From assembly GCA_035317085.1 (NCBI GenBank), contig DATHHS010000216.1:4963-68962 (forward strand): 64,000 nucleotides of DNA. Reading direction: 5' to 3'. The notes beneath the pieces were generated by a model. That model was not told the DNA's origin, did no database searches, and saw only the letters and a list, made by a program, of their open reading frames with translations. Shown piece after piece: positions 16,427 to 17,097 of the stretch. Within the stretch, counting starts at the first letter, position 1. Each line of letters opens with the position of its first letter. The stretch comes from Burkholderiales bacterium (GTDB lineage: Bacteria > Pseudomonadota > Gammaproteobacteria > Burkholderiales > SG8-39). The translations under genes were made by a program, and so were the position numbers.

Positions 16427-16481
16427 CTAACGCGCCGCCCGCTTGCGGGCGGTCGCTGTTGAGCCGGCGGTTAGACGTGAC
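16427..16481 (-). other. attC-like recombination site of the brnTA cassette, interrupted at its R' core by the IS
   Basis: Minus strand reads GTCACGTCTAACCGCCGGCTCAACAGCGACCGCCCGCAAGCGGGCGGCGCGTTAG. Two RYYYAAC boxes (GTCTAAC, GCTCAAC). The near-perfect hairpin GCTCAACAGCGACCGCCCGC-AA-GCGGGCGGCGCGTTAG has two unpaired bases on the 5' arm. The core is completed by GTTAGGC across the IS at 15066-15072. Confidence 0.5.
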
Positions 16482-16759
16482 CCCTTCTCATGCAGGCGCC
16501 CTGAGACGTACTTGTGAAGTACGCTAGCAATTAGCGTTTGGTAAGGAACACCCTCTTCATACGCCCGGGCTTGAATATCCATGAGATCGGCGGCGGAAAG
16601 ACGAATGTTTACGCGCCTGTTCTTTACAAAAGTTACACGCGCAGATTCTCGAAACGCGACGAGTTGCGCCTTTGTAGGACGAACGGAGACCAATGCCCCT
16701 TTTTCGTACGCACCCAGCACTTCTCGTTCGTAACGGTCAAGATTTTTCATCTGGATCAT
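16427..16759 (-). CDS. brnA: BrnA-type (CopG/RHH-like) antitoxin
   Basis: LDRYEREVLGAYEKGALVSV...KNRRVNIRLSAADLMDIQARAYEEGVPYQTLIASVLHKYVSGRL matches the BrnA antitoxin pattern. It overlaps brnT by 23 nt. The last ~18 codons are encoded by the attC-like hairpin. Confidence 0.7.
   Translation of the reverse strand: MIQMKNLDRYEREVLGAYEKGALVSVRPTKAQLVAFRESARVTFVKNRRVNIRLSAADLMDIQARAYEEGVPYQTLIASVLHKYVSGRLHEKGSRLTAGSTATARKRAAR
16470..16481. repeat. Left copy of the 12-bp perfect inverted repeat GTTAGACGTGAC (partner at 17086-17097)
   Basis: Plus strand 16470-16481 is GTTAGACGTGAC. The reverse complement of 17086-17097 is identical. The motif contains GTTRRRY / RYYYAAC. Confidence 0.85.
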
Positions 16760-17030
16760 CCGTTTCTAAATAGTCGCGTGTTGCCTTCCGGCTCGGAATG
16801 ACAGTCTTCAAAAAGTAGTGTTCCTCTTCCTCGACCGACGGAACAAGGAAGATGTATCCCCGATAGGCCACGACTAGCACGACCTGGCCGGGATAACGCC
16901 TTTGATTGGGATGGACCAGGATGTCTTTGAGTCCACCTTCCTCTACCGCAAGAACGATCTCCTCAAAAGAGATGCCGCGCCCTACCTTCAAGCGCTCGTT
17001 CTTAACCGGATCCCACCGGAACGGCTTCAC
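16737..17030 (-). CDS. brnT: BrnT-type (DUF497) toxin
   Basis: (V)KPFRWDPVKNERLKVGRGISFEEIVLAVEEG...YFLKTVIPSRKATRDYL resembles the DUF497/BrnT ribonuclease toxin pattern (F-WD..K...N...G.SFEE...R.ISAR.AT). GTG start at 17030. Confidence 0.65.
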   Translation of the reverse strand: MKPFRWDPVKNERLKVGRGISFEEIVLAVEEGGLKDILVHPNQRRYPGQVVLVVAYRGYIFLVPSVEEEEHYFLKTVIPSRKATRDYLETDDPDEKS

Positions 17031-17085
17031 ACATGGAGTCTACCAAAGCGTGTGCCTTTTGTCATCAGGCATCCTATTGCGTCTC

Positions 17086-17097
17086 GTCACGTCTAAC
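17086..17097. repeat. Right copy of the 12-bp inverted repeat; cassette boundary core site (GTTAGAC on the minus strand)
   Basis: Plus strand GTCACGTCTAAC at 17086-17097. IntI homology begins at the next base, 17098. Confidence 0.85.

Follow-up and report, generated by a model that had tools for sequence, protein, structure and literature searches.

A BrnTA-like integron gene cassette with its attC split by an IS1111-type insertion sequence, adjoining a truncated integrase gene

Gene content of the brnT-brnA locus

The window analysed was the whole stretch of 64,000 nt taken from a metagenome contig of a Burkholderiales bacterium (ENA ERZ27267892, k141_1528254; GenBank DATHHS010000216.1, positions 4,963 to 68,962), and the subject of this work is a pair of small genes in it, brnT and brnA, whose open reading frames (ORFs) overlap on the minus strand between the two copies of a 12-bp inverted repeat. 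A preliminary description of the sequence had proposed that this module is an integron gene cassette and the proposal was borne out. The pair is very probably a genuine and ordinary mobile cassette, and the shortness of its recombination site, attC, comes from the insertion of an insertion sequence (IS). To the right of the cassette lies, from position 17098, an integron integrase gene (intI) of which the 3' two-thirds are present. Leftward from the hairpin in which brnA ends, the plus strand carries an IS110-family transposase gene, and beyond it come a DUF6151 gene on the minus strand and the end of glnE. The features of the cassette itself, from its first base to the end of its attC, are listed below.

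17086-17097, minus strand: right repeat arm, made up of the crossover G (17097), TTAGAC (the first bases of the cassette and the R' half-site) and the 5-bp extension GTGAC
17037-17065, minus strand: promoter-like site within the cassette (ATGACA, a 17-nt spacer and TAGACT, with TG ahead of the second hexamer)
16737-17030, minus strand: brnT-like toxin gene, 97 amino acids, DUF497-like (PF04365, E 1.3e-3, below the cut-off)
16427-16759, minus strand: brnA-like antitoxin gene, 110 amino acids, with weak matches to PF12441 (CopG) and NF047399 (BrnA)
16421-16481, minus strand: 5' portion of the brnTA attC, with GTCAC, R'', CG as spacer, the three-bulge L''/stem/L' hairpin and the beginning of the 3' spacer
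15068-15074, minus strand: true R' core GTTAGGC of the brnTA attC, of which G15074 ends the brnTA cassette and TTAGGC starts the next

Similarity searches with both proteins gave scores under the curated cut-offs. BrnT scored 19.5 bits with PF04365 (cut-off 34.5), and BrnA scored 23.7 bits with PF12441 (cut-off 28) and 16.9 bits with the BrnA model (cut-off 60). A total of 4071 BrnT homologues were found, many with 79-96% identity among those listed, and 5 of the 120 close homologues listed had a precomputed PF04365 match. A few of the close homologues were named 'BrnT family toxin' or 'DUF497' by their sources. A PDB sequence search with both proteins produced nothing convincing (one non-significant match, E 0.37) and PADLOC gave no match to either. 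The order of the genes, with the toxin gene first and two small overlapping genes, is that of the BrnT/BrnA type II systems, which consist of a DUF497 ribonuclease toxin and a ribbon-helix-helix antitoxin. The differences are the scores below the curated cut-offs and an extra basic tail of ~18 amino acids on BrnA which is encoded by the attC. Judged on these matches, the pair is best called BrnTA-like.

The preliminary description had brnA ending inside an attC-like hairpin and this was found to be the case. The ORF crosses the left repeat arm and R'' and continues through the entire hairpin to its TAG stop in the GTTAGC (L') box, and its final ~17-18 codons are encoded by the attC site. A similar basic BrnA tail was present in homologues with ~50% identity (loci L034 and L067). 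At the promoter-like site near the other end of the cassette, the block TGATGACAAAAGGCACAC was kept in every homologous copy examined, whether borne on a cassette or not. The pair can still be expressed, as far as the promoter-like site is a guide, from its own cassette, and the usual cassette promoter (in or beside intI) must have been lost with the deleted segment discussed below.

Inverted repeat and cassette boundaries

The 12-mer GTTAGACGTGAC was found, as had been noted before, at 16470-16481 on the plus strand and at 17086-17097 on the minus strand. The window contains exactly these two copies, and the pair could be extended imperfectly to 19 nt with 84% identity. The chance expectation of a perfect 12-bp inverted pair within ~700 bp is ~0.015 by our estimate. 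The repeat by itself is moderately improbable and its weight comes from its position at two cassette landmarks. The left arm consists of R'' (GTCTAAC, 16470-16476) and the extension GTCAC (16477-16481), and the right arm begins with the crossover G and the first bases of the cassette. The 12-bp repeat is the 7-bp complementarity of R' and R'' with a 5-bp extension of the stem, and its two arms are the R' and R'' halves of a single attC, which agrees with the preliminary description. The circular form of the cassette has one attC. After linearisation at G|TT, the cassette start TTAGAC-GTGAC is complementary to GTCAC-GTCTAAC, which is the cassette's own R'' with its flank, and this gives the 12-bp inverted repeat.

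The same relation was found in related arrays, from which 28 cassettes delimited by recognised attCs were compared. On average, 6.3 of the 7 bases at the cassette start were complementary to the cassette's own R'', and 2.5 of the next 5 bases beyond the core were complementary compared to 1.25 by our estimate of chance. The full extension of 5 bases was present in 6 of the 28 cassettes. The DUF6151 cassette in the window likewise starts with TTAGGC-GGCAC, complementary to GTGCC-GTCTAAT at its own R''. The extended repeat is typical of cassettes in this lineage; it does not mark the end of a transposon or invertible segment. Cassettes of the lineage often start with GTTRRRY-GNCA..., and stem complementarity of 3-7 bp past the canonical 7-bp R box is frequent (both in the arrays of L005-L060 and at 15063-15074 and 14431-14442 of the window).

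Structure of the attC

The hairpin at 16423-16467 contains 19 bp in four blocks (6+3+3+7) and a 4-nt loop. Its DNA fold reached -22 kcal/mol on either strand, with z-scores of -3.3 to -3.5. The unpaired bases had been placed on the correct arm by the preliminary description but there are three single-base bulges instead of two; in the cassette strand they occupy the 5' arm (C, A and A) and in the bottom strand the 3' arm (T, T and G). A normal 64-nt attC, split here by the IS, has the hairpin as its inner part, which consists of the L boxes and the stem. Removal of 15076-16419 together with one of the two flanking G's restores the site, which reads on the cassette strand GTCTAAC-CG-CCGGCT[C]AAC[A]GCG[A]CCGCCCGC-AA-GCGGGCGGCGCGTTAGCCGG-GAC-GTTAGGC, with the bulged bases in brackets.

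Known attC sites range from ~57 to 141 nt. The reconstructed site of 64 nt fits this range and has the standard layout, while the minimal or fused attC of 40-52 nt that had been suggested earlier would lie outside it. In addition, the two nested RYYYAAC boxes that had appeared atypical are simply R'' (GTCTAAC) and L'' (GCTCAAC). The GTTAGCC that had been taken for R' breaks the RRR rule and is L', and the real R' lies 1.35 kb away. In the consensus structure all 7 positions of R'' and R' pair, with 6 Watson-Crick pairs and one G-T pair.

The 64-mer aligned end to end with 17 attCs from arrays beside related intI genes and kept all invariant columns of the alignment (C3, A5, A6, C7, G23, A24 and C-GTT). 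By our reading of its alignment row, it forms 23 of the 23 consensus pairs. For the family as a whole, 85.9% of the alignment cells pair compared to ~30% with slid partners, and compensatory changes were found at 13 of the 23 pairs; none of 500 shuffles reached the observed values. The fold of the 64-mer's bottom strand, at -23.6 kcal/mol (z = -4.7), comprises an R box, then an internal loop, then a stem that carries three bulges.

Scoring with an attC covariance model had been suggested as a check on the site. A custom model was built from 22 related attCs without the window sequence, and its best match in the window was at 16425-16476 with 20 bits (E 0.0065). Sites outside the training set scored from 26 to 56 bits, including the brnTA attCs of L155 (26.2 bits) and L067 (37.6 bits). 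The L155 match covers model positions 4-62, and L155 served as a proxy for the reconstructed 64-mer.

Insertion sequence within the attC

The IS1111-type insertion had been left unconnected with the attC site in the preliminary description. It lies between the 3' spacer of the attC and the R' core and has the following features.

15075-16420, plus strand: IS1111-type insertion sequence of 1.34 kb, with its core at 15076-16419, flanked by one G at 15075 and another at 16420
15082-15093 and 16405-16416: subterminal inverted repeats of 12 bp with one mismatch, AGGGACTTCCCC and GGGGAAGTCCTT
15179-16183, plus strand: transposase gene (IS110 N-terminal domain PF01548, E 5.9e-15; C-terminal domain Transposase_20, PF02371, E 9.6e-27)
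16184-16404: 3' non-coding region of 221 nt, with the target guide CTAACG at 16282-16287

The transposase matched NF033542, 'IS110 family RNA-guided transposase', with an E value of 3.9e-109. The terminal extensions of the IS are AATGAA (6 bp) and ATA (3 bp), and its ends are fixed by the empty site of L155. A contig of 1355 bp from an unrelated run and another sample was identical to 15067-16421 of the window. IS1111 elements that target attC are guided by a seekRNA (Siddiquee et al. 2024, PMC11187229), and they have subterminal repeats of 11-13 bp with extensions of 7 or 6 bp on the left and 3 bp on the right (PMC11187229). Such elements lie antisense to the cassettes (PMC3001079); the transposase gene here is on the plus strand and the cassettes on the minus strand, as in that report.

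A total of 80 metagenomic loci encoding relatives of the transposase were compared. More than 30 relatives of the IS, with 52-89% identity, had the same layout within attC-like sites and were located between R' and L'. The shared layout consists of ...RYCTAAC, GAATGAAAGGGACTTCCCC ... the right end GGGGAAGTCCTTATAG, a short spacer and then a box such as GCTAAC/GTTGAGC or similar, with a GC-rich stem beyond the box in most of the relatives. The left flank RYCTAAC|G was conserved.

The guide CTAACG is identical to the left-flank target, which is the bottom strand of R'. Covariation of guides was scanned with the repeat ends, allowing up to two mismatches. The guide was found to change with an altered target to TTATG in L076, TTACCG in L115 and TTCACT in L127, and L139 and L151 show the same kind of change. 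Another motif, CTTTCAT, is the complement of ATGAAAG at the left end of the IS and covaries with changes of that end. Covariation of target and end was seen in relatives such as L076, L115, L127 and L091-L102, and it is the pattern expected of a seekRNA or a bridge RNA. No convincing covariation was seen for a right-flank guide in the non-coding region of the IS. An Rfam scan of 13500-18500 found no attC or bridge-RNA family and a single chance match. The non-coding region also contains GGCTTTCATC ~22 nt downstream of the guide.

No close relative of the IS was found in the plasmid collection. Since the identity of the transposase to the copies there does not exceed 62%, the IS would be a separate environmental lineage when judged against the plasmid-collection copies. 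An RNA guide CUAACG would match the bottom strand of R' and would direct the insertion of the IS beside R'. The insertion moved the true R' 1.35 kb away, and this is why the site looks too short. It has probably disabled the attC.

The same cassette in other loci

A search for the cassette with an intact attC, which had been proposed earlier, found it in L155, a locus from a different, sister sample. L155 was 95.9% identical over 17103-16420 of the window and the homology ended exactly at the IS junction. Its attC is uninterrupted (GTCTAACCGCCAGCTCAAC...GCGTTAGCCGGGAC GTTA), reads ...CCGGGAC GTTA, where the contig stops, and is identical to the reconstruction without the IS except for a single base of the 5' spacer. 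Ahead of the cassette, L155 has the attC of another cassette, ...CAACCGGGAC G|TTGGACGTGAC... (...GGGAC G|). In L156 the same cassette start follows a third, different attC, and the contig ends before the cassette's own attC. The start G|TTRGACGTGAC thus follows two different attCs in L155 and L156, and in all three settings (window, L155 and L156) the similarity begins at G|TTRGAC. Homologues of brnTA with ~50% identity in the arrays of L034 and L067 showed the same boundaries and a shared upstream motif.

Copies of brnTA with 84-87% nucleotide identity were also found in ordinary chromosomal settings without an integron (L157-L161; for example L160:5964-6608 and L157:2961-3603). These copies keep the palindrome that encodes the tail, have no R' and no cassette leader, and carry mutated R''/L'' boxes (GTCTATC, GTCTGAC). 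The covariance model gave no match to L157-L161.

The integrase gene remnant and the second cassette

The host integron is a degenerate chromosomal one in an uncultured bacterium. The features on either side of the IS-bearing cassette were the following.

17098-17779, plus strand: intI pseudogene, 3' two-thirds (TIGR02249 profile positions 103-276, E 1.3e-73)
14432-15031, minus strand: DUF6151 gene, the second cassette (PF19648, E 1.7e-22), with the cassette running from 15073 to 14372
14372-14437, minus strand: attC of the DUF6151 cassette, decayed but with its layout kept between R'' (GTCTAAT) and ...CGAAAAC G
14363-14371, plus strand: nine bases CCCTCAGTG (Pro-Ser-Val), the candidate other half of an insertion site

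The closest relatives of the intI remnant are in genome assemblies labelled mostly Burkholderiales or Betaproteobacteria. An intI-pilU-pilT neighbourhood was common to 9 related loci, of which one (L067) is rearranged. Some of the related genome bins have two integrons (L026 and L060 belong to one bin). The remnant starts at approximately codon 101 (LTADEV...) and has one frameshift near 17615, just after ...HSFATHLLE, with the conserved stretch ...TTMIYTHV in another frame (17600-17690).

The preliminary description had overlooked that the 5' boundary of the cassette abuts this internal truncation point of intI and not an attI or attC. The boundary G|TTAGAC is fused to intI at about codon 101, and homology to the relatives starts at CTCACG (17098). 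The relatives read ...P(S/T)V|LTxxEV at the junction point. Reading of the junction as a pseudo-attI was rejected because CGGCCGTGAG|TT is unlike the attI of related integrons, TGTCAACYAATNCNN|GTT, and no attI was found in the window. The first ~100 codons of intI and attI were searched for by tblastn, blastn, six-frame profile hidden Markov models and local DNA alignment against shuffles, and none of these was found in the window beyond the nine bases. A different ORF at 58551-59525 is unrelated and gave the only weak match (E 0.001) to the IntI N-terminal query; our guess is that it encodes another tyrosine recombinase such as XerC/XerD outside the integron.

On the far side of the second cassette, the attC of DUF6151 ends at the crossover G (14372) and is followed by CACTGAGGG without TTRRRY. 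Its fold was weak (z -1.4) and it was not detected by the covariance model. The reverse complement of CACTGAGGG is CCC TCA GTG, which encodes Pro-Ser-Val, and joined to 17098 it gives PSV|LTADEV in frame. The intI sequence reconstructed across the joint reads ...CCCTCAGTG|CTCACGGCC..., and the comparators are KPSVLTADEM in L005 and CCC TCC GTG in L038. A chance occurrence of Pro-(Ser/Thr)-Val in that frame has a probability of ~1e-3 by our estimate. Both abnormal junctions fall exactly at an attC crossover G and the rejoined flanks lose or gain no base.

The C-terminal tail of DUF6151 (14441-14503, minus strand, ...SGTPIRQPQVLTEAERTRV) resembles the IntI motif AKRPxRxPTVLTxEEVxR which spans the junction point. 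The tail is on the strand opposite to intI, the tblastn E values were 0.05-0.75 and the profile score was 1.9 bits; the resemblance is probably due to chance.

No other relative with intI truncated at a cassette boundary was found, and L058 and L067 are truncated at different, non-cassette junctions. The damaged intI genes of these loci are at L067:9640-10480 (N-terminal loss and an internal deletion) and L058:8150-8420 (N-terminal loss). In L067, a brnTA-like cassette is the first one beside the damaged intI.

The two junctions can be accounted for by one event followed by a deletion. The brnTA and DUF6151 cassettes would have entered as one two-cassette circle, which would have recombined at its normal crossover G with a non-canonical site in intI (GAG|CAC on the minus strand, at the Val/Leu codons ~100/101). 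A later deletion would have removed the remaining 5' part of intI, attI and any older cassettes. Because both odd junctions fit this course of events and jointly restore intI in frame, we give integration of a two-cassette circle into intI, followed by deletion, an almost even chance.

Three defects are visible in the array, namely the split attC, the decayed terminal attC and the broken intI, and with these the array is most likely frozen unless an integrase acts in trans.

Alternative explanations

A number of points weigh against the interpretation above. The BrnT and BrnA assignments are below curated thresholds and drew no support from PDB or PADLOC. The covariance model was home-made with 10 base pairs only, and at the interrupted site it squeezes R' onto GTTAGCC (L'), so that the 20 bits do not validate the full attC layout. 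The insertion into intI rests on nine bases, after which the similarity to intI stops, and it needs an extra deletion without a visible cause. Secondary sites of IntI show a preference for GWT or GTT, which the target GAG|CAC does not fit. The intI junction is known from a single assembly: exact-protein look-ups of BrnT, the intI fragment and DUF6151 returned the window's own contig alone, that of BrnA returned no record, and there is consequently no independent copy of the junction. Finally, since the cassette occurs in several settings, the flanks might have been wrongly linked within the repeat of 685 bp.

The explanation that competes most closely keeps the cassette and its attC as described but has intI truncated by a single deletion, with the end of the DUF6151 attC being an unrelated event. 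The R' on the brnTA side would have recombined with a site in intI, or would have been joined to it by repair after cleavage by IntI, in a step that removed attI, the 5' part of intI and the upstream cassettes. One step would explain the junction of G|TTAGAC with intI, and it agrees with the lack of any long 5' remnant of intI in the window. It leaves to coincidence, however, that the DUF6151 attC ends exactly at the crossover G and that the next nine bases encode in frame the Pro-Ser-Val which precedes LTADE in the relatives. We consider this course unlikely, while still a serious contender.

A different view of the coding hairpin is that it is a snapshot of the birth of an attC and not of its decay. 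A toxin-antitoxin gene of the chromosome whose 3' coding tail is palindromic, as in L157-L161, would have acquired R boxes and become a cassette. This is improbable in our judgement; if L157-L161 were ancestral, it would bear on the open question of the origin of cassettes and attCs.

It is more doubtful still that the hairpin of 40-52 nt, with GTTAGCC as R', is by itself a complete attC, either fused or of unusual shortness. The hairpin is stable on its own, and R''...GTTAGCC can be fitted in compressed form to the full length of the covariance model, with the 20 bits reported above. Intact sites scored higher with the same model, however, and L155 continues ...GTTAGCCGGGAC GTTA, that is, with GTTAGC followed by a spacer and a separate R'. 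GCTCAAC and GTTAGC also fall in the L-box columns in comparison with the 17 related attCs (e.g. L034 and L069), and the relatives of the IS always sit between R' and L'. This reading is very improbable.

The 12-bp repeats could also be the ends of a non-integron brnTA element, such as one resembling a miniature inverted-repeat transposable element (MITE) or an invertible segment; the inverted repeat around the 628-bp segment is perfect and the remnant of a tyrosine recombinase adjoins it. Against this, the arms are the R'/R'' cores at the positions expected in a cassette, the left arm is within the coding sequence of brnA, there is no target-site duplication, and comparable extended repeats surround 6 of 28 unrelated cassettes. 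Relative to the attC, the unit is oriented alike in L155, L034 and L067 (in L156 only the start is seen) and attCs of other cassettes precede it in L155, L156, L034 and L067. The preliminary description had named the pair with its repeats in a non-integron context as evidence for such an element, and the non-integron copies L157-L161 were found without the right arm. There is hardly any probability left for a MITE-like or invertible element.

Equally slight is the probability that the hairpin is a transcription terminator or a palindrome of the REP (repetitive extragenic palindromic) kind with coincidental attC motifs, since against its GC-rich stem-loop at the 3' end of an operon stand the lack of a T-run after it and of any terminator-like site in a scan, bulge spacing as in the 17 attCs, the invariant GAC at positions 23-25, the flanking R'' and (in L155) R', and its use as a target by an IS lineage that occupies attC-like sites.

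Comparison with known systems and significance

The brnTA cassette resembles cassettes of sedentary chromosomal integrons in its R''/R' cores (GTCTAAC/GTTAGGC), its 64-nt attC with bottom-strand folding, the extrahelical bases on the R''/L'' arm and an ORF directed toward the attC. The array is divergent from intI and the same cassette is found in different arrays, as in those integrons, and its own promoter-like site is shared with toxin-antitoxin cassettes. Unlike in integron cassettes generally, the attC is interrupted, its three bulges are spaced N-3-A-3-A, stem complementarity often continues 3-5 bp past the 7-bp cores in this lineage, and the first cassette abuts an internal codon of intI and not attI. 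A degenerate intI, as found here, has been reported to be common in Xanthomonas (PMC12444791).

The IS resembles the IS1111-attC group (ISPa21, ISPst6, ISKpn4) in its DEDD transposase, subterminal repeats with short extensions, a long 3' non-coding region with a guide that matches the target, and insertion at one end of the attC antisense to the cassettes (PMC11187229, PMC3001079). The boundary of exactly G|TT joined to unrelated DNA and the conservative joint are as in recombination of IntI at secondary sites. The candidate event would be unlike it in that the target would lie inside intI and would read G|CAC, and in that two cassettes would enter together.

Toxin-antitoxin cassettes, degenerate chromosomal integrons and IS1111-type insertions in attC have already been described, and the probable integration into the integrase gene itself is the sole unusual element of the locus. 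The locus is a worked case of how an RNA-guided IS that splits an attC leads cassette finders and human readers to miscall the site. The frequent extension of the R-box stem by 3-5 bp in this Burkholderiales integron lineage may matter for the recognition of attC by IntI. If the two junctions are halves of one event, an insertion catalysed by the integrase would have destroyed the integrase gene itself, and the toxin-antitoxin cassette at the intI remnant would represent a concrete and testable route to the fossilisation of an integron.

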